From a phage: a stretch of 64,000 nucleotides of DNA. The translations under genes were made by a program, and so were the position numbers. How positions within the stretch are numbered: position 1 is the stretch's first letter; the number at the start of each line of letters is the position of its first letter. This document shows positions 6,425 to 56,116 of this stretch, one piece after another. The DNA lies in assembly GCA_018015315.1 (NCBI GenBank), contig GCA_018015315.1_3629.1, one strand, 5' to 3'. The notes below the pieces were generated by a model. It was given only the letters and a program-made list of their open reading frames with translations. It made no database searches and was not told the DNA's origin.

Positions 6425-6901
6425 TTATTTTTGCTGTCCAATTTTAAAGGTTGCAGATTCCAGCAGCACATCGTAATGCCGCATAGCCTCGTTGAAGCCC
6501 TTCTCTTGTGCCCACTGCTCACTAACAGTAGGGTTACTAAACTGACCAGCCTCAATAACAAACTGGATAGCTTTGGCCCCTGTGTCCCCCATCTGCTTAA
6601 GAATAGCCTCTGCACTTGATCCTCTAGCCATAGCTCTCAACAATTTTTCTGTCAAGGTCTGTAGTTGAGTGCTGTGAAATGCAAAAGCTGTCTCCATGAA
6701 ATTGCGAACAGGCAGCCCGTTCCAACCGAAGTTGTGAATGGCTGCCAATGTTGCCATATTTAAGCCTGACGGGTGAGGTTCGTCATAAAAGCCGTAGGTT
6801 ATTGTTTTACTTTCAAGTCTCACAAGTTCTTTGTAGAAGCGATCTAAACGCTTTAGGTTGAACCTTGTTTGACATTTAACCTTTAGCATTATATCTCTCA
6901 C
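6425..6901 (-). CDS. hypothetical virion protein (head-tail joining region)
   Basis: 158 aa ORF in structural operon. Confidence 0.4.
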   Translation of the reverse strand: MRDIMLKVKCQTRFNLKRLDRFYKELVRLESKTITYGFYDEPHPSGLNMATLAAIHNFGWNGLPVRNFMETAFAFHSTQLQTLTEKLLRAMARGSSAEAILKQMGDTGAKAIQFVIEAGQFSNPTVSEQWAQEKGFNEAMRHYDVLLESATFKIGQQK

Positions 6902-6942
6902 TAATGTATTTTACCACAAAGATACATCAAAAGCAACAATTT

Positions 6943-7563
6943 TTAAAAACTGCGTTTGCGTCTTGGGTGGCGAGGAGGTTGGTTATTTAGACCGCTGATA
7001 GGTGTAATCCCCTGGACATCGAACGGTCCGTTGCTGTTTTCATTAAATTTAACCCGAATTCCTTCGTCTACACGAACACCACCAATGATAATCATTCTGC
7101 TGTAAGCATCTAGCTCAGAATCTACATAATCTGGGTGTGCCAGCAGCCAATCAAGAAAATCTTTCCACTGAGCGTAGGAAGATCCACCACGAATCTCTAT
7201 GGTCTCATCACCTATTTTTTCCAGACGAGAAGTTATACTTGCATTACCGCTGGAAACTTCCTGCATCATCAGCCACCGCACAAGCTGCACAAGCACATTG
7301 TACTTAAGCAGGGGTAGCTTATCAGGGTCTGCCGGATAATTTAGTTTCAACTTCTCCATGTCAAGGAATGTTTTAATTACCCCATCAGGGAGTGTTTCCT
7401 CATCAACATTTCCAAGCAATAACCTCATAATATCAATAAGAGGTTGGTCTGGATCAGGTTCTGGGGGCACAGGATCTTCTTTTGGTGGTTCTTCTGGGGT
7501 ATCGACTACACCATCATGGTTAGGCGGTGACGGGATAATCTCTTCATCTTCATACCATGCCAT
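6943..7563 (-). CDS. hypothetical virion protein, acidic Pro-rich N-terminus
   Basis: start moved to internal ATG (MAWYEDEE) with GAGG RBS, downstream of stop of 7623-8477. Confidence 0.4.
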   Translation of the reverse strand: MAWYEDEEIIPSPPNHDGVVDTPEEPPKEDPVPPEPDPDQPLIDIMRLLLGNVDEETLPDGVIKTFLDMEKLKLNYPADPDKLPLLKYNVLVQLVRWLMMQEVSSGNASITSRLEKIGDETIEIRGGSSYAQWKDFLDWLLAHPDYVDSELDAYSRMIIIGGVRVDEGIRVKFNENSNGPFDVQGITPISGLNNQPPRHPRRKRSF

Positions 7564-10986: not shown

Positions 10987-11417
10987 TATTCATTGCCCTC
11001 TTCTACAACACTGATCCCGAAATTTACATTGGTAATTTCGCCCGTCTCTTCATCAACATTACCTGTTGCCTGAATGCTTAGGCCACCAACAATGCCAGCC
11101 TTCTTAGCTTCCCATAATTCAGGATTATTGTATTTAACTTTAGCAACCCAAGAGCCAGCCTTGATGACCTGCTCAGTACCAATTACTACAACATCAAACT
11201 CTTCTTGAATCCACGTCTTTTCAATAGTGAAAGCATCTGTAGAGGTCAAGTGGAAAAGGTTTTCAGAAACTAGGCCTGCGGCGTATGCTGCGTCCCAATT
11301 ATCTTTAGCCTTTTTGATGGTGTCTTTACTCATCCACTCACCGTGAGCGTCTTTAGTGTCCGGTTCGTAGATGATTTCGTAGGAAATCATTTCTTCCTGT
11401 GGCATCTTATTCCCCAT
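10986..11417 (-). CDS. hypothetical head morphogenesis protein
   Basis: ORF between portal and scaffold; start uncertain (track ORF overlaps portal 3-prime end, internal ATG chosen); no protease motif seen. Confidence 0.3.
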   Translation of the reverse strand: MGNKMPQEEMISYEIIYEPDTKDAHGEWMSKDTIKKAKDNWDAAYAAGLVSENLFHLTSTDAFTIEKTWIQEEFDVVVIGTEQVIKAGSWVAKVKYNNPELWEAKKAGIVGGLSIQATGNVDEETGEITNVNFGISVVEEGNE

Positions 11418-45731: not shown

Positions 45732-46012
45732 AAATGAGTGCTAAGGACAAGTTGCACCAGTTAGCGCTAAAACGTCCTGTAACGCTCCCTGACGAGCTTA
45801 ACTCCATTTATGATGCGATTGTAGGGGAGATACAAAATAAAGCGTTAGCAGGCTTTCTGGGATGCGGATTTTCGATAAATCTACCCTCACATCTCTCAGA
45901 TTACTTCCCGCATATTGTTGGGGATTTGAGGGCAGGAGGTCTGCAGGTAGATGTTGTTGGCATCTCTCCAGAGAAAAATAACACGGTTGCCTACTTGACA
46001 GTAACCTGGTAG
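45728..46012 (+). CDS. hypothetical protein
   Basis: ATG overlapping upstream stop. Confidence 0.4.
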   Translation: MKMSAKDKLHQLALKRPVTLPDELNSIYDAIVGEIQNKALAGFLGCGFSINLPSHLSDYFPHIVGDLRAGGLQVDVVGISPEKNNTVAYLTVTW

Positions 46013-46046
46013 TTATGTATTGTTGTTCTCAACAAGGGGGTCATTT

Positions 46047-46286
46047 ATGTACAAGTCATTTTCAATTTACTCAAGACAGGCGAAACACTACACAGAGATC
46101 CTGATTACTCAGAAAAAATCTGTAGAAGGTGAGTGGGAGTATCACCATAAAATGTTGCGCCCAGATTGGGTTTTTGATAGACTTATTGCTATGATCCCTC
46201 TTGGAGAAGTATACCCTCTGACAGGTCATAGGGATGCTTGGGATTTAATTGATTACATAGATTCATTTAAGGAGCCCAGTGTATGA
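46047..46286 (+). CDS. hypothetical protein
   Basis: ATG after AGGGGG RBS. Confidence 0.4.
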   Translation: MYKSFSIYSRQAKHYTEILITQKKSVEGEWEYHHKMLRPDWVFDRLIAMIPLGEVYPLTGHRDAWDLIDYIDSFKEPSV

Positions 46287-46681
46287 AGATTGAGATCACT
46301 AAAGAAGGTAAGAAAGTGTCTGGAGACTATGCAACAGTAATTCGAGATTTAATGTTTGAAACCACCAAGTTCGGCACATCTAAAGTTGGTCAAACGGTGA
46401 GTGTGCAAGGTAATATCACCTCAGGAGAGAAGATAATCATCGTGATCAAAGGACAAGATCCTGTGGAAGGAACAGTGGGCCGAGGAGGCTACCTGTGCAT
46501 TTCTGAAGAACCGCGCATGCTGGTCGCTGATGACTCCACAGGTAAAAAGCGGGTATGTAACACTGACGAGGTGATGATTATCTATCCAGTCAACCCAGAT
46601 GATCCTGCAACATGGATTGTGGGGAATGAAATCTTCTCTTTAGAAGAGTTATCCTTCCCAGCTCCGCGCTCTGTTCAGTAA
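46283..46681 (+). CDS. hypothetical protein
   Basis: 132 aa ORF. Confidence 0.4.
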   Translation: MKIEITKEGKKVSGDYATVIRDLMFETTKFGTSKVGQTVSVQGNITSGEKIIIVIKGQDPVEGTVGRGGYLCISEEPRMLVADDSTGKKRVCNTDEVMIIYPVNPDDPATWIVGNEIFSLEELSFPAPRSVQ

Positions 46682-46720
46682 TAATTTATCTTACCAGAGA
46701 CGGTAGAAGTAGGAGGTAGC

Positions 46721-46954
46721 ATGAAAGTTAAATTTCTTACAGATTTAGGGTACCCTTCCTTGGTTGACTGCGTTGGTAAAATTGTGGAAGCAAAACGACT
46801 ATCTGCAAACGATAATGTTGTCATGGTTAAGGGAAAAGATTTACTATCTGCAGGTGCAGAGTCTGGCAGGATCTCTCCTGACTATACGTATTACCTGTCT
46901 TTAAGTAATCTACCAGAACGAGGCGGCAAAGGCCTTGAAGTTGTGGAGGAGTGA
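46721..46954 (+). CDS. small acidic protein, MKVK paralog family
   Basis: MKVKFL N-terminus, VKGKDLLSAGA core, C-terminal LEVVEE. Confidence 0.5.
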   Translation: MKVKFLTDLGYPSLVDCVGKIVEAKRLSANDNVVMVKGKDLLSAGAESGRISPDYTYYLSLSNLPERGGKGLEVVEE

Positions 46955-47478
46955 CAGGTATGCTACTGGTTGATTGGAAAGATTTTTATGGCGATAAAGA
47001 CCCGAAAGCATTTATATATAAGCCTTGGAGATACTCAGAGAGTCAAATTGCTGCAATAAACCTTACAGCAAAGCGCCGAAAAATTATTGAAAGTAAATAT
47101 AGATACGCCCAGCTAGTGGCTGGTGTTTCTCCACAGGTAGAGGGTTTTGTACTTAAACTGTACGAAAAGTTTATGAATTACGATTTGTCATTCGTGAAGG
47201 TGGGCGAGGATTTATCCCCTGGTAACAACGTAACCCGTTGGAAAGTTTCGTGTGACAAAAAACTCCCGATCAGTATTGAGGTGTGTCGATACTGGGGGTA
47301 TCATGATTGTGGATTGTATGACTACCATGATGTGGAAATAAAGCCACGCAATCATCTAAGCGACCCAGAAAAAGATTACTTGAAGCATGTGATTCTTTCC
47401 ATGTTTGGAGGGTATATCACAGAGAAAAATAGCGAAGACAGAGTATCCTTTCTTAACAGTTTGAACCAGGAGATGTAA
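46951..47478 (+). CDS. hypothetical protein
   Basis: 175 aa ORF. Confidence 0.4.
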   Translation: MTGMLLVDWKDFYGDKDPKAFIYKPWRYSESQIAAINLTAKRRKIIESKYRYAQLVAGVSPQVEGFVLKLYEKFMNYDLSFVKVGEDLSPGNNVTRWKVSCDKKLPISIEVCRYWGYHDCGLYDYHDVEIKPRNHLSDPEKDYLKHVILSMFGGYITEKNSEDRVSFLNSLNQEM

Positions 47479-47479
47479 T

Positions 47480-47716
47480 ATGGCCATAGATACTGTGTTG
47501 GTTTGGTATTGCGCATTGACCTTTCTGACAATGGTTGTTTTAGCAACTCTTTGCATCATATCTTGTAGAAAAATTAAGTTTGACGACTTTATAACTATAA
47601 TCACTGCCGCACCTTTTTGGCCTGTCGTTCTCTTCATTGTTGTTATGTGCTTGGTAGATCACTGTAAAACCGTCAGAAAAATGAAGGAGGAAGATAAGAA
47701 TGGTAACAGTGACTGA
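47480..47716 (+). CDS. small membrane protein (holin-like topology)
   Basis: 78 aa; two hydrophobic segments and charged C-terminal tail. Confidence 0.35.
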   Translation: MAIDTVLVWYCALTFLTMVVLATLCIISCRKIKFDDFITIITAAPFWPVVLFIVVMCLVDHCKTVRKMKEEDKNGNSD

Positions 47717-47830
47717 AACTGTTTATACTGTTCTTAGGGAGATTGCATTCTATACAGACCTTAGTTCAGTATCTTCATGGGAAAAGAGTGTGTATTTAAA
47801 ATGGTGCGTGAAATTAGAGGGGACCTTCTA

Positions 47831-47950
47831 ATGTTTCAAGCCATGTTTATTGAAATGCTCTCCGGAGTATTACTGCTGGTAGCCATTTTGGGTGGTGCGG
47901 CACTAATGTATAATTATCTTGAAAAAGGGGACAGTAATGACAAAAAATAA
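47831..47950 (+). CDS. small hydrophobic peptide (39 aa)
   Basis: GAGGGGA RBS; single TM-like segment; below track size cutoff. Confidence 0.3.
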   Translation: MFQAMFIEMLSGVLLLVAILGGAALMYNYLEKGDSNDKK

Positions 47951-48122
47951 ATCCTTAGAACAGGCTGAAAACCTTCTCCACGAGCTGGTAAAGGAGTGGA
48001 AAGTCGAATACTCAGATTTTAATGCAAGAGAGGGTGAAGATTATTGGCCTACGGAGCGCTCAGAGGGAGAGTGGTATCAAGATTTCATAGAATGGTTATA
48101 TCAGACGTGTGATGAGGGGTGA
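47937..48122 (+). CDS. hypothetical acidic protein
   Basis: ATG after AGGGGA, overlapping upstream peptide. Confidence 0.35.
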   Translation: MTKNKSLEQAENLLHELVKEWKVEYSDFNAREGEDYWPTERSEGEWYQDFIEWLYQTCDEG

Positions 48123-48580
48123 CGATGTTTGTTAAATATGTAAAAACGTGCCTCAACAACCTTGGTAGAGAGCATTGGTACACCTTGCTTGAAAAAGGAG
48201 AAATTTTAACAAAATCTGGAAAGATAACTTTGATACCCTTGGATGATAAAGACCCGTCACTACTTGTCATAGATGATTACGTTACAGGTGTGTCGTACGA
48301 GGTCTCTGTGGAGAGGTTAATACGCAGATCTGGAGGGCCTTATGACCGAAGAGAGTATGTTTTCGATTCTGTTACAGAGAAGGAGGATCCGTCTCTAATG
48401 TTTAGGATGGTAATCAGGGATATGAAATCATCTATAAATAGGATCGTAAAGGACATTAAAGAGCCTTTTAGGGTAAAAGTTAAGAAGTTTTTTGATTCTA
48501 AGATTAACATACTCGCCGTTGTGCTAGGCGTAATTCAACTTCTGTTAATTTTGCACTATCTTGAACTGTTGTTCAAGTAG
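48119..48580 (+). CDS. hypothetical protein with C-terminal TM segment
   Basis: 153 aa; C-terminal hydrophobic stretch. Confidence 0.4.
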   Translation: MTMFVKYVKTCLNNLGREHWYTLLEKGEILTKSGKITLIPLDDKDPSLLVIDDYVTGVSYEVSVERLIRRSGGPYDRREYVFDSVTEKEDPSLMFRMVIRDMKSSINRIVKDIKEPFRVKVKKFFDSKINILAVVLGVIQLLLILHYLELLFK

Positions 48581-48640
48581 TGTGCAACAAGGCACAAAGG
48601 ATGTGCCATGATTAAATAAACTAAGAAAGAGGTAGAGAGA

Positions 48641-48988
48641 ATGCCAAAGATTAAGTCGGTATTAATGTGGGCAGCTGTTGTAGCTTTTGTAGGATACTGG
48701 ACTTGGGAAACTGAATTAAAAGATATCGGATATACCAGTCTTGAGAGCAAGGCATGCATTGGCATAACCGATGCATTCAGGCAAAATGCTATGGATCATG
48801 AATGTGTTGATGCAGATATAGATGAGAAACTGTCTAAGGACAAGGATTTTTACCATGGGCATGCTTTGCTTGATAGTGGTGACACTGTAGAGTTCTGGTC
48901 GTGGTTCCGTGAAGATGGAACAATAAAAACAGCAGTAAAGATCTCTAACAAAGAGTTAATGCTGTTGCAGCAGAAGGAGGCTCAATGA
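48641..48988 (+). CDS. hypothetical protein with N-terminal TM/signal segment
   Basis: 115 aa; AAGAGGTAGAGAG RBS. Confidence 0.45.
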   Translation: MPKIKSVLMWAAVVAFVGYWTWETELKDIGYTSLESKACIGITDAFRQNAMDHECVDADIDEKLSKDKDFYHGHALLDSGDTVEFWSWFREDGTIKTAVKISNKELMLLQQKEAQ

Positions 48989-49272
48989 TCTGGATATCCT
49001 ATACTGATGGCACCATGCTGTATACTGCAGGTACCCGATATGAGGTTCAGGAGGACGATAAAAAATTTATCGTAAAAACATTTGACAAGGACGACAACCT
49101 TTTGCTAGAATTGACTTACAAGGTTGGAGAGGTATCCGATATCCAATTGGATTGTGGTCATAAAGATAATCCACTCAAAAAACCTGGAATAGGCAAGGCT
49201 TCAGAAGAACGTTTGTCTCGTATTGCAGAAAGCGTTTCTCCCCAAAAATCTAAGAAGAGGAGTAGAAAATGA
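48985..49272 (+). CDS. hypothetical protein
   Basis: 95 aa ORF. Confidence 0.4.
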   Translation: MIWISYTDGTMLYTAGTRYEVQEDDKKFIVKTFDKDDNLLLELTYKVGEVSDIQLDCGHKDNPLKKPGIGKASEERLSRIAESVSPQKSKKRSRK

Positions 49273-49469
49273 GTGACAAAATTCTTAAATTTAATACCTA
49301 CTATGAGAATGATTTGAACGATCTGTATTATATAGTGCGTAGCGAAAACCCGAATGTAGTACTGTTTTGCCGAGAACCTTTCAAAGGAGAGGAGATTGAA
49401 TCTACCATGAATGTGGATCAGATTTCACACCTGCTGCTCCTTGGATCATTAAAAGAGGCAGTATTCTAA
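49269..49469 (+). CDS. hypothetical protein
   Basis: 66 aa ORF. Confidence 0.35.
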   Translation: MSDKILKFNTYYENDLNDLYYIVRSENPNVVLFCREPFKGEEIESTMNVDQISHLLLLGSLKEAVF

Positions 49470-49488
49470 ACCAGGATGGAGGGTTTTT

Positions 49489-49677
49489 ATGAAGCACTAT
49501 TGTCTGTCTGGTAGGATGGGTGCAGATTGTGATTGGGTTTTCTTAAAACTTGTCAGTATTCGAGAGTTCATTCCAGAGGAAGAGCAAGAAAGTGAGCTGA
49601 TGTCATGGATCAACCATTACGGTAACACTTTTCGGCATGTTAAGGTGGAAGAGTTGCCAAGCGAGGCTGAATTATGA
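49489..49677 (+). CDS. hypothetical protein
   Basis: 62 aa ORF. Confidence 0.35.
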   Translation: MKHYCLSGRMGADCDWVFLKLVSIREFIPEEEQESELMSWINHYGNTFRHVKVEELPSEAEL

Positions 49678-49967
49678 AACTTTTTGAGTGGTTTAAAAAG
49701 TTTAAATATAAAGCTGTAGCCATCGTGCCGTGGTCCATTCAGTGGGTGGACGATGATGGATTACCAATTCCAGGTGATAAAGACACGGGATACTGGATCA
49801 TGCTTGAGAACGGGTTCGGTAAACGGAAATATTCCTGCACGGATACCTCAGGAGCATCTTTTAGGAGAATTCCTGGGTATAAATGTATGATTGTGTGGAA
49901 GATGTCTGGTGTACCTCCGGCCAATGCACAATATCTTACTACCAATCCAACCACAGAAGAGGACTAG
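49674..49967 (+). CDS. hypothetical protein
   Basis: 97 aa ORF. Confidence 0.4.
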   Translation: MKLFEWFKKFKYKAVAIVPWSIQWVDDDGLPIPGDKDTGYWIMLENGFGKRKYSCTDTSGASFRRIPGYKCMIVWKMSGVPPANAQYLTTNPTTEED

Positions 49968-49969
49968 TA

Positions 49970-50251
49970 ATGAAAAAGATTTGCGATACAGATGTGGAGT
50001 TCAAGGTGTGTAGTAAGGAGACCTATTGGGAAGTGAGACAAAAGGTATATTTGTTTGGACTTATCCCATATTGGTCTAAATTCTACTGGGGAGCAGATGA
50101 ATTAGGGAGATATGCCACCAAAGCTATGGCGCTTATAGGTATAGCTGAATATATTGCTGCTAGGGACAGGGCTGGAAAAACCTGCTACTACACTGCTGAC
50201 GAGATTCGTAACAGTGTTTACGTCCCACAACCACCTGATGGAGACCGTTGA
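49970..50251 (+). CDS. hypothetical protein
   Basis: ATG after GAGGA RBS directly after upstream stop. Confidence 0.4.
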   Translation: MKKICDTDVEFKVCSKETYWEVRQKVYLFGLIPYWSKFYWGADELGRYATKAMALIGIAEYIAARDRAGKTCYYTADEIRNSVYVPQPPDGDR

Positions 50252-50475
50252 TGAAAGTTAAAGTTTTAGATTCAAGCTTCTATATTGGTCAGGAGCCTTT
50301 AGTAGGGAAAGTGTTTACTGCTGTCCCTAACGAAGATTACCCTGACCTTTTAAAAATAAAAGGGGCAGATCTTATTGCCGCTGGTGCATCTCAGGACTGC
50401 TTTGACAGCCAGTGGGACTACAACTTTGCCCTAGGTGAGGATGTAGAGATAGTGGAGGACGATCATGAAGGTTAA
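50248..50475 (+). CDS. small acidic protein, MKVK paralog family
   Basis: MKVKVLDSSFYIGQ, IKGADLIAAGA, C-terminal VEIVEDD. Confidence 0.5.
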   Translation: MMKVKVLDSSFYIGQEPLVGKVFTAVPNEDYPDLLKIKGADLIAAGASQDCFDSQWDYNFALGEDVEIVEDDHEG

Positions 50476-50719
50476 AATTCTTGATTCTAACGTCTACTTG
50501 GGGCAATCCTTCCTGAAAGGAAAGGTCGTCCCTGCGGTATACTTTGAAGGGTTGCCGTGGGATGATCCTGTGCGGCAACATCACAGTTATGTAGGCCACA
50601 ACGTGGTGTTTATTTTAGGATCAGACCTGATCACCGCTGGTGCACCTGAATATTATTTCGGGGAAGAGTCCTATTATGCCTTTGGGGTAGGGTCAGATGC
50701 AGATATTGTAGAGCTGTGA
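50465..50719 (+). CDS. small acidic protein, MKVK paralog family
   Basis: MKVKILDSNVYLGQ, ILGSDLITAGA, C-terminal DIVEL. Confidence 0.5.
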   Translation: MKVKILDSNVYLGQSFLKGKVVPAVYFEGLPWDDPVRQHHSYVGHNVVFILGSDLITAGAPEYYFGEESYYAFGVGSDADIVEL

Positions 50720-50731
50720 TGGGTAACCGTT

Positions 50732-51130
50732 GTGAAAAATAAACTGTTCAAAGTTACAATGAAAATTCGCGGAGCTTGGAGCGTAAAGCAAGGGCGTATC
50801 CCAGAATTTGAGAAAGACTTCTACGTAGTCTCCACCTCGGAGGAGGCTGCATGCTGGCAGGCTGGCTATGCCTATGCAAGAACCTGGTACGAAGGATACC
50901 AGACTGGGGGCTATGACGGAGAAATTGTCAGCAAGGGTGTAGAAGAAATTAATGTGTTGACAAGTGAAAAAGTTTTTGTTATAGTGCATCCAGATTCCAG
51001 AGTGAAGCATTACTGGAATGCCAGAACAAAAACTTGGACACCGTTTGCAGATTCTGCTACTCCACTTTTAAACCAGAAAGCTCTTGACTCTGCCCCAAGT
51101 TATGGGGTTGTTGAAGAAAAGCTAAACTGA
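50732..51130 (+). CDS. hypothetical protein (paralog of 52941-53336)
   Basis: shared segment HPDS..YWN..WTPF with 52941-53336 product. Confidence 0.45.
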   Translation: MKNKLFKVTMKIRGAWSVKQGRIPEFEKDFYVVSTSEEAACWQAGYAYARTWYEGYQTGGYDGEIVSKGVEEINVLTSEKVFVIVHPDSRVKHYWNARTKTWTPFADSATPLLNQKALDSAPSYGVVEEKLN

Positions 51131-51147
51131 AACAGTGAGGTGTCACC

Positions 51148-51438
51148 ATGATGGATTTAATTCTAAATATTGATAACGCAGGAGAGTTTAAAGACGATGG
51201 TGTAACAAGCATGGACAAACCCTGCTCTGCTAAGGTTGACTCAAAATGGACCTATAAGTTTGATGGAGAGATCTTCGCAAATGATGAGAAGGTTGTAGAT
51301 GCTGCAGCCATTTTGAACGCTCTAGGTTACGACCCTGTGAATTCTTTGATCAAGGATCCTGTTGAGTTTGCGGAGTATGTTCGAAAAATGGCAGATCTTG
51401 CTGTAGATATTTTAAAAACTATCGACAACAAGCTATAA
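51148..51438 (+). CDS. hypothetical protein
   Basis: 96 aa; GAGGTG RBS. Confidence 0.4.
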   Translation: MMDLILNIDNAGEFKDDGVTSMDKPCSAKVDSKWTYKFDGEIFANDEKVVDAAAILNALGYDPVNSLIKDPVEFAEYVRKMADLAVDILKTIDNKL

Positions 51439-51443
51439 AACTG

Positions 51444-51472
51444 TTGACACAATGCTTCAGCTATAGTATTAT
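51444..51472 (+). promoter_or_regulatory. sigma70-like promoter upstream of hpf-like gene
   Basis: TTGACA-17 bp-TATTAT, then leader hairpin AGAGAGA..TCTCTCT and AAAGGAG RBS. Confidence 0.5.
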
Positions 51473-51524
51473 TGTTTTCAAAGAGAGATGGTTGTTACTC
51501 TCTCTTCCTTAAAAGGAGCACGTT

Positions 51525-51842
51525 ATGCAAATTGAAATCACTGGCAACGTAGAAATCACTGAAGGTATGGTGTCTTTCATTTCCCACAAAATGTCTAAGC
51601 TGGAGCGTTTGCACCCATCTGCCAACTATGCACGTGTGAGTGTAAAAGTTGAAAATGATCACCAGGAAGTCATGGCGTTCATTTTTGACACTTCCGGAAA
51701 AGAAGTTATTGCCAAAGCTAAAGGCAGTGACGCTTACGAGGCAACTGACCGTATGGTAGATGTTGCAGCACGTCAGTTGGCTAAATGCGGTGGAAAGAAA
51801 GGTAAAGGGAAAGGCAAAGTAAAGATTGACTTTGGAGAATGA
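51525..51842 (+). CDS. hpf: ribosome hibernation promoting factor / RaiA-family homolog
   Basis: MQIEITGNVEITEGM closely matches E. coli HPF N-terminus MQLNITGNNVEITEA (from memory); about 100 aa; basic Gly/Lys tail. Confidence 0.7.
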   Translation: MQIEITGNVEITEGMVSFISHKMSKLERLHPSANYARVSVKVENDHQEVMAFIFDTSGKEVIAKAKGSDAYEATDRMVDVAARQLAKCGGKKGKGKGKVKIDFGE

Positions 51843-51979
51843 GGTGCTACAATGGGCGTGATTAAGAAATTAGTCCCAAATGTAGAGATTGCATGCTTTG
51901 AAATTATGTTTGCAATCGCAGTTGTAGTTAATGTGTTAGGTTACGGCTATTAATATCAAATAATTGAGGAGACCTCTAA

Positions 51980-52249
51980 ATGAAAATTAAATTATTCAAA
52001 ACTGAGCTGGCAGACAAAAACTGTGGACTGGTTGAAGGCATGATTGTTGAAGCACAACCAGTGGACTATATGAAAGTGGTTCGTGATGCCCTGGGTGAAG
52101 GTTTTGATCTGATGGAGCCAGCTCTGCGCGAAGATGTTATCGAGATGGCTAAAAAGCACACACCTGAAGGTTTGGTGGTGTTTGTTGCACCGGGTAACGG
52201 AGAAGAGTTGATTGTAACTCCTGATGTGTATGAGATTGTAGAGGAATAA
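51980..52249 (+). CDS. small acidic protein, paralog family (YEIVEE tail)
   Basis: MKIKLFK N-terminus, C-terminal PDVYEIVEE. Confidence 0.45.
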   Translation: MKIKLFKTELADKNCGLVEGMIVEAQPVDYMKVVRDALGEGFDLMEPALREDVIEMAKKHTPEGLVVFVAPGNGEELIVTPDVYEIVEE

Positions 52250-52340
52250 TCCTGCTTGGATTAGCATACTTACTCGATAAGGAAGATTTGTAATTATTTG
52301 TGGGAAAGGAATCCCAATCTCTTACCAGAGGTGATACTAT

Positions 52341-52604
52341 ATGATTGTTTATTTTAAAACTTCAGGTGGATACCCTGATTCTCAAAGCTTGATCGGGAAA
52401 ACGTGCACAGCATACTCACCTCTTGATGAAGAGGTAGGTGATATTCTACGAAATATGTATCGGATTGACCCCCAAGAAGCTTTTGATCAAAACCTTGTAT
52501 TTGTCAAGGGCTCAGACATGAAGTCTTTGGGAGCATTCCCTGAAGCAGATGATGATGCCGTTTATTCGTTCATGACCCCTTTTGAAGCTATGGTTGTTGG
52601 GTGA
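52341..52604 (+). CDS. small acidic protein, MKVK family relative
   Basis: VKGSDMKSLGA core. Confidence 0.45.
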   Translation: MIVYFKTSGGYPDSQSLIGKTCTAYSPLDEEVGDILRNMYRIDPQEAFDQNLVFVKGSDMKSLGAFPEADDDAVYSFMTPFEAMVVG

Positions 52605-52608
52605 TAAT

Positions 52609-52941
52609 ATGAAAGTACGCTTTATTGGTGAAACAATTCCTGTGCATCTCCGGTCGCCTGAAGATTCTGCAGATCTTGCATCTCAGAAGGCGAGAGGTTA
52701 TGATAAGAAAGTAATCTCAACCGATGTAGAACTTGAGGCTACTAGTCTACCTGACCCTGCTGCATTCTTTAATCATTATGGATACTATTTCAGCAATCTG
52801 ATGAATATCGGTGAGCTTGTGTTTATTAGTGGTGGAGAAATTGTTAGCAAGCTTGGCGGCGATCCGGATGTCTTTCATGAAACCTGTCCTTTTGCATTTG
52901 TGGTAGGTTCAGATGTGGAAGTTATTGAGGAGGTGCGGTAA
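52609..52941 (+). CDS. small acidic protein, MKVK paralog family
   Basis: MKVRFIGE, VVGSDVEVIEE tail; internal ATG chosen. Confidence 0.45.
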   Translation: MKVRFIGETIPVHLRSPEDSADLASQKARGYDKKVISTDVELEATSLPDPAAFFNHYGYYFSNLMNIGELVFISGGEIVSKLGGDPDVFHETCPFAFVVGSDVEVIEEVR

Positions 52942-53336
52942 TGGTAAGACTATACCGTGTTGAGTATAGCTCAGATACTGTATACAATGTAAGAAGCAAA
53001 GATCGCAGCGACAGAGTGCAAGAAATGTATGTTCTTGCCGACAGTCCGTTATCTGCAGCGTTCAAGGCAGGGTCTCTTGCATCTCGTTGGAAATTTGAAG
53101 GTGGATCTTTCTATGAAGAAACCCTTGAAGATTCTGTTGTTATTTCTTCTGCAGAGGTTTCAGATGACTACGAAGGGAAAAAGTTCGTAATGCGGCACCC
53201 ACACAGCAACATTGCGTACTACTGGGATGTTCTGAACAACGAGTGGACCCCAGATCTTCAGAAGGCCACTGTGCTAACACCGTTTTTGGCAGATAAGTTT
53301 CCACCAGAAGGTAATTTATCCGCACTGTTTCAGTAA
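52941..53336 (+). CDS. hypothetical protein (paralog of 50732-51130)
   Basis: RHPHS..YYWD..WTPD segment shared with 50732-51130. Confidence 0.45.
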   Translation: MVRLYRVEYSSDTVYNVRSKDRSDRVQEMYVLADSPLSAAFKAGSLASRWKFEGGSFYEETLEDSVVISSAEVSDDYEGKKFVMRHPHSNIAYYWDVLNNEWTPDLQKATVLTPFLADKFPPEGNLSALFQ

Positions 53337-53354
53337 TTTTCTTGCACACAGGTG

Positions 53355-53383
53355 TTGACAACGCCAACCCTGTGTGAAATAAT
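53355..53383 (+). promoter_or_regulatory. sigma70-like promoter (weak -10)
   Basis: TTGACA-17 bp-AATAAT. Confidence 0.35.
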
Positions 53384-53412
53384 ACCTTCATCTTAACAAG
53401 ACAGGAGACCGA

Positions 53413-53673
53413 TTGATGAAGATTAAATTGAAAAACCTTGAAACGGCAGAGATTCAGGACGGTGTGGATTTCCGTTCTAAAGATGGTGACATCTTAGAGG
53501 TAAATATTCCAACCTACGAGCTGATCAAAGGTTTTGGCAACGTCCCCGAGGAAGGTATCGCAGACGTTCTTCTAATGTTAATCGTTAGTGGGACAGTGTT
53601 CTTGGGGGAAGGTGAGAACGCTATTGCAATCCCAAGCCATTTTTATGAAGTAGTTGACGAAGAGGCGCTGTAA
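53413..53673 (+). CDS. small acidic protein, paralog family
   Basis: MMKIKLKNLE, C-terminal YEVVDEEAL. Confidence 0.45.
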   Translation: MMKIKLKNLETAEIQDGVDFRSKDGDILEVNIPTYELIKGFGNVPEEGIADVLLMLIVSGTVFLGEGENAIAIPSHFYEVVDEEAL

Positions 53674-54024
53674 ATGAAAGTAGAAATTACTGGTTTTGAT
53701 GTGAATGTGGTTCCGGAAGATATTTTAGCTAAACTCCCGGAAGGTTTTGGTAACGGTGTTGTGGTGGATGCTGTTCCTCCTACCAAAGACATTCTGCTGC
53801 AGTATGGTGTAGCAGAGGAAGATGTTGATAAAGTTCTTACAATGATGGCAATCGATCGTGTTGTCGTTGTTAAAGGTCTCGATAATTTTGAGAGTGATCC
53901 TCTGATTATTCGTGGAGATGACTACAAAATCATCGATAATGAAGGCCAAGAGTTCTATGAGCCTTGTGCAGAAGATATTCTTAACTTATTACTGGAAGCA
54001 GGCACCGAAGAGGAGGACGAATAA
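53674..54024 (+). CDS. small acidic protein
   Basis: MKVEITGFD N-terminus, acidic C-terminus EEEDE. Confidence 0.4.
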   Translation: MKVEITGFDVNVVPEDILAKLPEGFGNGVVVDAVPPTKDILLQYGVAEEDVDKVLTMMAIDRVVVVKGLDNFESDPLIIRGDDYKIIDNEGQEFYEPCAEDILNLLLEAGTEEEDE

Positions 54025-54353
54025 TGAAGATTGACCCGTTACTGAAGGCTCGTGCAGAAAAAGCGTACACCATTAAGCTGACCAACCTGGTTCCTACTTG
54101 TCATCCAGATGTAGGTTGGCCCGAAGGTTTGGTGGAGGGAACTGTAACAGCTGCATACCTTCCTAACATCAAATACCTCATGGAGATCTTAGAGATGGAT
54201 GAGGAAACTGCAGAACAGTTCCAGTTGGATATGAAACAGAGTGGGACTCTGGTTATTCACGGGTGGTATAATACTAAAGATGCAGAAGACCCTCTGGTAA
54301 CTTCTAATCTGGCATATGAAATCTTAGGGCCTTTGAACCTGGAGGAAGACTAA
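54024..54353 (+). CDS. small acidic protein
   Basis: 109 aa, ATGA-coupled to neighbours. Confidence 0.4.
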   Translation: MKIDPLLKARAEKAYTIKLTNLVPTCHPDVGWPEGLVEGTVTAAYLPNIKYLMEILEMDEETAEQFQLDMKQSGTLVIHGWYNTKDAEDPLVTSNLAYEILGPLNLEED

Positions 54354-54640
54354 TGAAAGATCTGGTTAAGATTAAGATTAAAGATACCAATGGGGAGCTC
54401 AGCCATTTTGGAATTAATGATGGTGACGAGCTGATCGCACACCTGCCTACCAAGGAGGTTGTAAGCAAAGCAGTTGCCGGAGAAGAAGCTGCAATGCAGG
54501 CTGCAGGTGTGGATGAAAACTATGTAGCTATGTGCATGTGCCGAGATCAGGTTGTTCTGTATAAAGCGTATCGACCAAACGGAGCCACGGAGTGGCTTGT
54601 ATTCCGACCCGAAGGATATGAAATCTTAGAGGCACTATGA
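54353..54640 (+). CDS. small acidic protein, paralog family
   Basis: KIKIKDTNGE, C-terminal EGYEILEAL. Confidence 0.45.
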   Translation: MKDLVKIKIKDTNGELSHFGINDGDELIAHLPTKEVVSKAVAGEEAAMQAAGVDENYVAMCMCRDQVVLYKAYRPNGATEWLVFRPEGYEILEAL

Positions 54641-54729
54641 TAAATCTTGCCAAGGTTGCAACGGCACTGTTAATTATTTGCTGGTCAGTAACCTTAACAC
54701 TGTGTCTTGTATTTCAGTGAGGTGCTTGT

Positions 54730-54993
54730 ATGAACATCCTGATGTGGGTTATAGCAGTGGCGTTTGTTGCATGTTTTTGCTGCTGGGTTGCGGTGAGGAT
54801 TTCTGTAGCTACCCTTCGGAAGTTGGGGTTCTCAGAATGGGATATTGATATCCTTTCTTTTCGCAATGAGACAATATCAGCCGCCCTGCTTTGTAAGAAA
54901 TTCAAGTGGGAACCTTGTGAGGTCATGAACTATCTAAGAACGGGAGATATCCCTGAAAGATTTAAAAAAGTTCTTGACGGTAAGGATAAATGA
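54730..54993 (+). CDS. small membrane protein
   Basis: 87 aa; N-terminal TM segment. Confidence 0.4.
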   Translation: MNILMWVIAVAFVACFCCWVAVRISVATLRKLGFSEWDIDILSFRNETISAALLCKKFKWEPCEVMNYLRTGDIPERFKKVLDGKDK

Positions 54994-55002
54994 TAGTATA
55001 GT
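54974..55002 (+). promoter_or_regulatory. sigma70-like promoter
   Basis: TTGACG-17 bp-TATAGT. Confidence 0.45.
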
Positions 55003-55789: not shown

Positions 55790-56116
55790 ATGGGTATACC
55801 GATCACTGTAAAAGAATTGAATGAACGTGATGCAGGTGGTCTATGGCCTGCACGAAAAATACGCTGCGTCTACATGAAAGAGAACCTTGAACATCTTGAT
55901 CAACAGATCAAGGTCGGTGATATTTTCGAGGTCTTCTATTCCAATCGTCGCAACTGGGAAACCATTCAGCCTTCTGGTTTTGTTCTTGCCAAACTTGACA
56001 CTGGAGAAGTGATTATCCCAGGGTTGGATATTGTCTTCGAAATTATCCAGGAGTGGGATCCGGATAAGATTAGATATGAAGAGTTATTCGGTGAAGGTAT
56101 TATCAAACCTGTGTGA
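55790..56116 (+). CDS. hypothetical protein
   Basis: 108 aa; GGAGA RBS. Confidence 0.45.
   Translation: MGIPITVKELNERDAGGLWPARKIRCVYMKENLEHLDQQIKVGDIFEVFYSNRRNWETIQPSGFVLAKLDTGEVIIPGLDIVFEIIQEWDPDKIRYEELFGEGIIKPV

Follow-up and report, generated by a model that had tools for sequence, protein, structure and literature searches.

Positions 46,721 to 54,640 of a 64,000-nucleotide stretch of phage DNA (GenBank assembly GCA_018015315.1, contig GCA_018015315.1_3629.1; the whole stretch is referred to as the window) were found to carry ten small genes, all on the plus strand, that fall into two families of five, A and B, interleaved within one cluster. The products are predicted to fold as SH3-like small beta-barrels, and our reading is that these are two lineage-specific five-gene families of barrels that would act as non-enzymatic binding modules for host or phage macromolecules, an interpretation whose chances are put at about even. 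An earlier note, made from the sequence letters, had described at least eight paralogs in a single family (the products of 46721, 50248, 50465, 52341, 52609, 51980, 53413, and 54353). The open reading frames (ORFs) lie where that note placed them, on the plus strand, and the expansion is real, but it is larger, with ten genes, and it divides into two families. The sizes it gave, 75-116 amino acids (aa), require a small correction: the eight listed products are 74-110 aa long, and the 116-aa protein is encoded by the gene at 53674 (B3), which, like that at 54024 (B4), was missing from the list. The proposed common core and significant sequence homology hold for five of the eight listed genes, and the other three belong to the second family. 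The cluster is thus the product of a lineage-specific expansion, and the phage domain concerned is uncharacterised and widely scattered; features of this kind are familiar from large phages.

Motifs were examined as regular expressions over all 319 window ORFs of at least 50 aa. The strict core proposed for the whole set, (K/L)G(A/S/K)DL(I/L)xAGA, is present in the products of 46721, 50248, and 50465 and in no other ORF, and a loosened form of the core retrieved exactly five, those of 46721, 50248, 50465, 52341, and 52609. All-versus-all blastp linked 46721 with 50248 (E = 2e-5), 50248 with 50465 (1.8e-13), 50248 with 52609 (2e-3), 50465 with 52609 (6e-3), and 46721 with 52341 (0.025), and gave no link for 51980, 53413, or 54353. 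A hidden Markov model (HMM) built from three sequences recovered 52341 (E = 1.5e-6) and 52609 (E = 7.7e-6) among the 319 ORFs. An independent test was provided by an outside-only profile, composed of 21 family A homologs that all come from phages or prophages other than Vequintavirus. This profile matched exactly the five A genes, with E-values from 5e-23 to 2.7e-7, the next ORF scoring 0.29; the five A genes are therefore true homologs, and the homology of family A is solid at the level of sequence. The members of family A are as follows:

46721 to 46954, plus strand: A1, 77 aa, isoelectric point (pI) 5.4, core KGKDLLSAGA; phrog_5009 E = 8.5e-36; outside-only profile E = 5.8e-18
50251 to 50475, plus strand: A2, 74 aa; phrog_5009 E = 5.9e-38; outside-only profile E = 5.4e-23
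50465 to 50719, plus strand: A3, 84 aa; phrog_5009 E = 3e-32; outside-only profile E = 1.3e-15
52341 to 52604, plus strand: A4, 87 aa; own family phrog_13920, phrog_5009 E = 1.2e-4; outside-only profile E = 2.7e-7
52609 to 52941, plus strand: A5, 110 aa; outside-only profile E = 2.7e-7; hhalign to A3 6.8e-7

The start of A2 is the ATG at 50251, the ORF list beginning the same gene at a TTG at 50248. A3 overlaps A2 by 11 bases and carries a 14-aa insert after strand 2 of the predicted barrel, at which point A4 has an insert of about 25 aa; A5 contains large inserts, and its good alignment is confined to the C-terminal half. The family consensus, emitted from the outside profile of 21 homologs, is MKVKLLNDGGYSGLENVKIGKVVEAKSVDGGELVSILGSELIRAGAKESSFDEDYEYSFFIGEEVEVVEE. 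In a 39-sequence alignment, Tyr11, Gly38, Gly45, and Tyr57 (A2 numbering) and the G-x-D/E-L-I-x-x-G-A helix were near-invariant; A5 deviates, with Phe for Tyr57 and GG for GA. All but one of these 39 sequences (38/39) matched phrog_5009 at E<=1e-3. This family and phrog_13367, 8603, and 7345 (PHROGs v4, all of 'unknown function') resemble family A in length and architecture; PHROGs assigns no function, fold, or name to phrog_5009, and files A4 and A5 apart (13920 and 13661). Searches of Pfam, NCBIfam, PADLOC, and PDB sequences returned no relative, only sub-threshold noise, including Acyl_transf_2, LRAT, SycN, DUF2080, and a designed ankyrin-like repeat (on the 'eLikaGAd' helix cap), and none of the ten proteins matched PADLOC-DB at E<=0.1. 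An ORF at 55790-56116 scored E = 0.022 with a five-sequence profile and was not matched by richer profiles, and it is not a member.

The remaining five genes constitute a second family, B, which is recognised by profile methods only and in none of whose members the GxDLIxAGA motif was found. Each subfamily in turn was left out of the training profile, and the left-out gene was the best non-training match every time (E = 1.8e-8, 2.5e-4, 0.033, 7e-4, and 5e-5). Aligned by hhalign against the rest, the left-out subfamilies reached 80-91% probability over 67-80 columns. With diverged orthologs added, hhalign joined B2 to B3 (P = 3.8e-7, 93% probability), B3 to B4 (P = 1.2e-5), and B1 to B5 (P = 6.7e-5 over 85 columns). 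In PHROGs, each B member stands alone in a family of its own, all of unknown function. The members of family B, with leave-one-out HMM and hhalign values, are as follows:

51980 to 52249, plus strand: B1, 89 aa, pI 4.4; predicted barrel with helical insert
53416 to 53673, plus strand: B2, 85 aa; leave-one-out E = 0.033, hhalign 80%
53674 to 54024, plus strand: B3, 116 aa; leave-one-out E = 1.8e-8, hhalign 91%
54024 to 54353, plus strand: B4, 109 aa; leave-one-out E = 7e-4, hhalign 80%
54353 to 54640, plus strand: B5, 95 aa; leave-one-out E = 5e-5, hhalign 87%

AlphaFold models of both families showed an SH3-like small beta-barrel, with predicted local distance difference test scores (pLDDT) of 90-92 (A2: 90.2). 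The predicted five-strand antiparallel barrel can be superposed on known SH3-like domains in the PDB, with the five strands in the same order, over 47-58 residues at 2.3-3.1 Å, and the A and B models matched the same PDB barrels with similar Z. For both families, this predicted fold is the SH3-like one of eukaryotic SH3 domains, PsaE, the Spt5/NusG KOW domain, the retroviral integrase C-terminal domain, and PhnA-like proteins. In family A, strand 1 ('MKVK-L') is followed by a Tyr-containing loop, strand 2 ('GKvv-A'), the variable insert, strand 3, a short helix ('G-DLI-AGA'), strand 4 ('Y-F'), and strand 5 ('E-EvvE'). The family B barrel carries a helical insert of 30-40 residues at the same loop, so that this insert and those of A3, A4, and A5 all lie between strands 2 and 3; B3 has an additional acidic C-terminal helix. 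The Pfam SH3 (SH3_1) and KOW models gave no match at E<=1 for the ten proteins or at E<=0.1 for the 39 family A members. In the PDB up to 2026, which includes solved anti-defence proteins, no structural match was better than generic SH3 domains, and a Foldseek search of viral structure predictions (BFVD) returned uncharacterised phage proteins only. Nine of the ten proteins have a pI of 4.05-4.8 and a net charge of -6 to -21, the latter value being that of B3.

The likeness that had joined the A and B genes, namely the MK(V/I)K start and the acidic tail, consists of low-information features. The MK(V/I)K start occurs in the products of 46721, 50248, 50465, 51980, and 53413 and not in the remaining listed ones, and MK-K is a common N-terminus. 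The tail (E/D)(I/V)(V/L)E(E/D) was found in three of the listed genes, not in the rest, and also in one unrelated ORF. Its GAG and GAGG codons double as the Shine-Dalgarno sequence of the next gene. GGAGG or GAGG precedes the following ATG by 5-10 bases at the 50251/50465, 52609/52941, 53416/53674, 53674/54024, and 54024/54353 junctions, and the acidic tails lie over Shine-Dalgarno sequences at 50440-50475, 52915-52941, 53650-53673, 54000-54024, and 54330-54353. Part of the 'shared acidic tail' may thus be imposed by translational coupling. At their junctions, the family genes overlap by one base (TAATG or TGATG) or by 11 bases, abut directly, or are separated by 4 bases; the ATGA coupling described earlier, a four-base start/stop overlap, exists among the interleaved neighbours but not at family-gene junctions. 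When the significance of the motifs was assessed by alignment and HMM, the similarity proved to be beyond chance, but as two families of five and not as one of eight.

Over positions 46000-55000, the window shows 98.2% identity with Escherichia phages ECML-10 and JES2013, and more than 100 further rV5-like phages of the genus Vequintavirus share 91-96% identity with this region. To judge from these alignments, the source of the window is a Vequintavirus, an rV5-like E. coli myovirus. In the JES2013 annotation, every gene of both families is a 'hypothetical protein'. The ten-gene cluster, whose upstream neighbours include PhoH, a ClpP-like protease, and a DNA methyltransferase, forms the end of a long rightward unit with replication and nucleotide-metabolism genes. 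In the rV5 genome paper, this unit comprises genes 82-163, and E. coli-type promoters are spread over the genome, this unit included (PMC3606486). The words 'paralog' and 'duplicat' are absent from that paper (PMC3606486), and the five-fold and ten-fold Vequintavirus expansion is described neither there nor in PHROGs; no description of it was found in any of the databases searched. Eighteen records named 'Campylobacter phage' (host C. jejuni) also match the E. coli Vequintavirus region, those listed having 95-99% protein identity to the product of 50251, and the records are probably mislabelled as to host or derived from contaminated isolates.

A and B are real, functional genes under purifying selection, and the expansion is lineage-specific. 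The ratio of nonsynonymous to synonymous substitution rates (dN/dS) is 0-0.19 for all ten genes in comparisons with phages SYGMH1 and phita32, and of 122 phage records, 115 retain the region at 90-99% identity. A metagenomic relative (L026) contains all ten genes in the same order, with 29-74% protein identity, and this ordered retention argues for ten non-redundant functions. In a more distant relative (L027), only A1 (the sole A member, 68% identity) and B1, B2, B3, and B5 are present, which indicates that A2-A5 and B4 were gained later or were lost in the L027 lineage. Family B was found only in rV5-like phages, and in Seunavirus, Mydovirus, and Avunavirus neither family was found within 20 kb on either side of the ClpP-like gene. 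Recombination within family A is ongoing, as relatives encode chimeras of its paralogs: P0014 and P0018 combine an A2 N-terminus with an A3 C-terminus, joined at the GADLIAAGA motif, and P0027 combines an A1-like N-terminus with an A2 C-terminus. In SYGMH1 (L018 4657-5125, compared with window 50251-50719), A3 is 77% identical and its neighbours 94-97%; in phita32 (L019, compared with window 53416-53673), B2 is 86% identical and its neighbours 97-98%. These mosaic alleles point to local allele replacement by recombination. Another chimera, P0087, has an unrelated N-terminus (PF24132 match) and a B4 C-terminus. The A4 (52341) ortholog carries a one-base indel in phita32 (L019, about 6772-7040) and is truncated to 59 aa in V18 (P0032).

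Outside Vequintavirus, a phage or prophage with family A usually has between one and three copies. When 1.84 billion cluster representatives were searched exhaustively with an HMM, 40 proteins scored E<=1e-3, most of them 65-80 aa long; some proteins contain two or three family A domains in tandem. One protein from this search, P0106 (4388 aa, with YDG and MBG domains), was not matched by the outside-only profile and was rejected as spurious. By tblastn, the family was located in phages of Vibrio, Proteus, Citrobacter, Enterobacter, Aeromonas, Pantoea, and Morganella and in Tlsvirus LL5, with large (164-174 kb) Citrobacter and Proteus phages among its carriers, and an IMG/VR scan located it in about ten viral contigs of 35-52 kb. 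A scan of a genome collection, with a narrow search pattern, found two prophage copies only (Moellerella and Providencia). In lambdoid prophages, the family A gene is single-copy and occupies classic accessory-gene sites: directly 5' of NinX, close to Dam and integrase; ahead of NinB; or in the interval from the Q antiterminator to the holin. In Escherichia phage LL5, a family A ORF (L023 1111-1314, plus strand) is unannotated, and the overlapping gp85 on the opposite strand, probably a mis-call, is annotated instead. Vibrio phage CHOED has two adjacent copies. The first belongs to CHOED_040 (L002 5557-6216), annotated as a 219-aa 'HNH endonuclease', which runs in frame, with no stop, into a complete A domain; this domain has its own ATG preceded by GGAG, and the second A gene, CHOED_039, follows. 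The HNH-barrel arrangement may be a genuine fusion or may reflect read-through in the annotation.

Whether A and B share one ancestral barrel gene, so that the ten genes would be one expanded family, was weighed against the two-family reading. In such a history, B would have been derived from A through the gain of the helical insert and the loss of the GxDLIxAGA helix. The common predicted fold with its matches to the same PDB entries, the position of the A and B inserts at the same loop, and the interleaving of the genes in one cluster all speak for this; convergence is a plausible explanation of the fold, since the SH3-like barrel is a very frequent fold in small phage proteins. Profile-profile comparison over strands 1-2 gave P = 7e-4 to 1.4e-3, but the corresponding hhalign probabilities are only 18-27% over only 26-28 columns, and the observed score was reached in 2 of 100 column shuffles. 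Over all A-B comparisons, P ranged from 7e-4 to 5e-3 and probability from 7 to 27%, and the alignment never extended past the initial 26-28 columns (MK-K-L ... G-vv-A). In favour of one family, the family A profile matched the L027 ortholog of B1 at E = 0.009, at both termini. Against it, the N-terminal MK-K and the acidic tail are low in information. The outside-only A profile found no B member (best E = 1.2), and PHROGs gives each B member its own family. Bridging through the diverged L026 and L027 orthologs and new B1 relatives (P0130-P0138) left the comparison at P~1e-3. The sequence relationship between A and B is therefore no more than suggestive, and a single origin for all ten genes is judged possible, with somewhat less than an even chance.

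As to function, each of the ten genes would encode a single-domain, mostly strongly acidic, cytoplasmic protein with a predicted SH3-like barrel, family A being the result of the expansion, in Vequintavirus, of a domain whose only catalogue entries are phrog_5009 and its sister PHROGs. Transcription would be by the host RNA polymerase, from the rightward unit with its replication and accessory genes, and each protein would act stoichiometrically by binding a different host (or phage) macromolecule. With net charges of -6 to -21, the most plausible partners would be basic nucleic-acid-binding proteins, and the ten paralogs may represent non-redundant binders on one scaffold, whose specificity is set by the variable loop or insert. 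The length of 74-116 residues, the single variable loop, the acidic pI, and the tolerance of tandem arrangement suggest a non-enzymatic binding scaffold rather than a nucleic-acid binder, and an enzymatic role is judged unlikely because the proteins are too small and their conserved positions are structural (Gly, Tyr, and the hydrophobic core). Several observations weigh against this reading: the most conserved residues could form a shared functional site and not be purely structural; the alignments behind the predicted models are shallow (22-27 sequences); A1, with a net charge of -1, is not particularly acidic; and A4 is a pseudogene in some relatives, its frameshift in phita32 and truncation in V18 indicating that it is dispensable in some backgrounds.

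Host takeover or anti-defence was the function suggested by the earlier note, and the sigma-70-promoter-rich unit, the acidic products, and the accessory-gene sites in other phages are consistent with it. In its most specific form, the acidic barrels would be DNA mimics or decoys directed against nucleic-acid-targeting immunity (restriction, Avs-type sensors, and the like), with one system per paralog. The charge of the proteins, the position of the genes among early-type promoters, the genus-specific array, and the occurrence of family A at 'moron' sites in prophages favour such a role, for which the small, narrow-range phage proteins Ksap1 and Ksap2, which interact with KpAvs2, offer a precedent (PMC11564622). 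Strong purifying selection and stable one-to-one orthology in place of rapid turnover, with the region kept at 90-99% identity in nearly all records (115/122), argue against a fast arms-race repertoire, and neither the solved anti-defence structures in the PDB nor BFVD yielded anything closer than generic SH3 domains and uncharacterised proteins; an anti-defence array of this kind is considered unlikely. The genes might instead serve the phage itself, as accessory subunits or chaperones of its replication, recombination, or homing-endonuclease machinery. Here the neighbourhoods are suggestive: in CHOED, the A domain forms the in-frame C-terminal part of the annotated HNH endonuclease CHOED_040, which comes immediately after a DNA polymerase; another family A locus (L010) has an HNH_3-AP2 endonuclease 3' of the A gene; in a third (L009), the A gene lies between NinB and a large upstream ORF read as a putative DnaB-like helicase; and the Vequintavirus array itself comes after replication and nucleotide-metabolism genes. 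However, the separate ATG and GGAG of the CHOED domain mean that its 'fusion' may be a read-through, the neighbours vary between phages, and acidic proteins are poor DNA binders, so this role appears improbable. The most far-reaching proposal, that all ten proteins are one superfamily of acidic SH3-like binders forming a combinatorial host-takeover or anti-defence array, is likewise rated as having only a small chance of being correct. If it were true, each paralog would neutralise its own target among the basic host proteins that bind nucleic acids (nucleoid proteins, restriction enzymes, or NLR-type sensors), and family A would constitute a new type of inhibitor domain, modular and widespread in phages and prophages but unnamed in current databases.

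PBS2 Ugi, T7 Ocr, T7 Gp2, and T4 Arn are small acidic early inhibitors that mimic DNA or block host proteins. The A and B proteins resemble them in small size, negative charge, lack of enzymatic motifs, and early or accessory gene position; there was no sequence or fold match between them in the PDB searches, and any analogy would be purely functional. Ksap1 and Ksap2 are phage proteins with a narrow range and an unknown function that bind the Avs2 sensor. They share with the A and B proteins a small size (roughly 74 aa), conservation within a phage genus, and a position near a methyltransferase gene (PMC11564622), but they are not homologs. Ksap1 was rejected as a relative: its marginal Foldseek matches are to predicted response-regulator domains and not to a barrel (PMC11564622), and the family A match in phage LL5 lies in a Tlsvirus rather than a Dhillonvirus.

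Many of the small genes in large lytic phages have no known function, and those whose role has been worked out have time and again proved to encode specific inhibitors of host machinery or immunity. The present cluster offers a defined domain whose fold is predicted with confidence, ten conserved, non-redundant paralogs in a genus used in E. coli O157 typing and biocontrol, and single-copy relatives in many other phages and prophages. The analysis mainly corrects the family boundaries and supplies a predicted fold and a distribution. If partners are found, family A would merit a database entry, and could explain accessory genes at the lambdoid 'nin' and Q-to-lysis sites.

Three candidate promoters were noted within the cluster:

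53355 to 53383, plus strand: sigma-70-like promoter, TTGACA-17-AATAAT with extended -10, by consensus matches only (11/12)
51826 to 51853, plus strand: sigma-70-like promoter, 10/12 consensus matches with TG, by consensus only; upstream of B1, A4, and A5
51444 to 51472, plus strand: sigma-70-like promoter from a consensus scan; just upstream of an HPF/RaiA gene

The candidate at 53355 lies in the gap before the tightly packed B2-B5, and the three sites, as read from sequence, are compatible with transcription by the host polymerase. The HPF/RaiA gene, in mid-cluster (51525-51842, plus strand), encodes a ribosome hibernation factor (Pfam Ribosomal_S30AE, E = 1.9e-12); relatives have it annotated, and it occurs in L026 but not in L027.

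A third pair of paralogs, C1 (50732-51130) and C2 (52941-53336), both on the plus strand, encodes proteins of 132 and 131 aa that match each other by blastp (E = 2.4e-9) and gave no Pfam match. Each lies directly 3' of a family A pair (A2-A3-C1 and A4-A5-C2). A block duplication of [A2-A3-C1] into [A4-A5-C2] would fit this gene order, but A2 and A3 are mutual closest relatives, and the duplication is unproven. In L026, the C1 position is occupied by a different, 96-aa gene, and an extra gene (11092-11388, Pfam Phage_P22_Y8K6) lies between the C2 and B2 orthologs.

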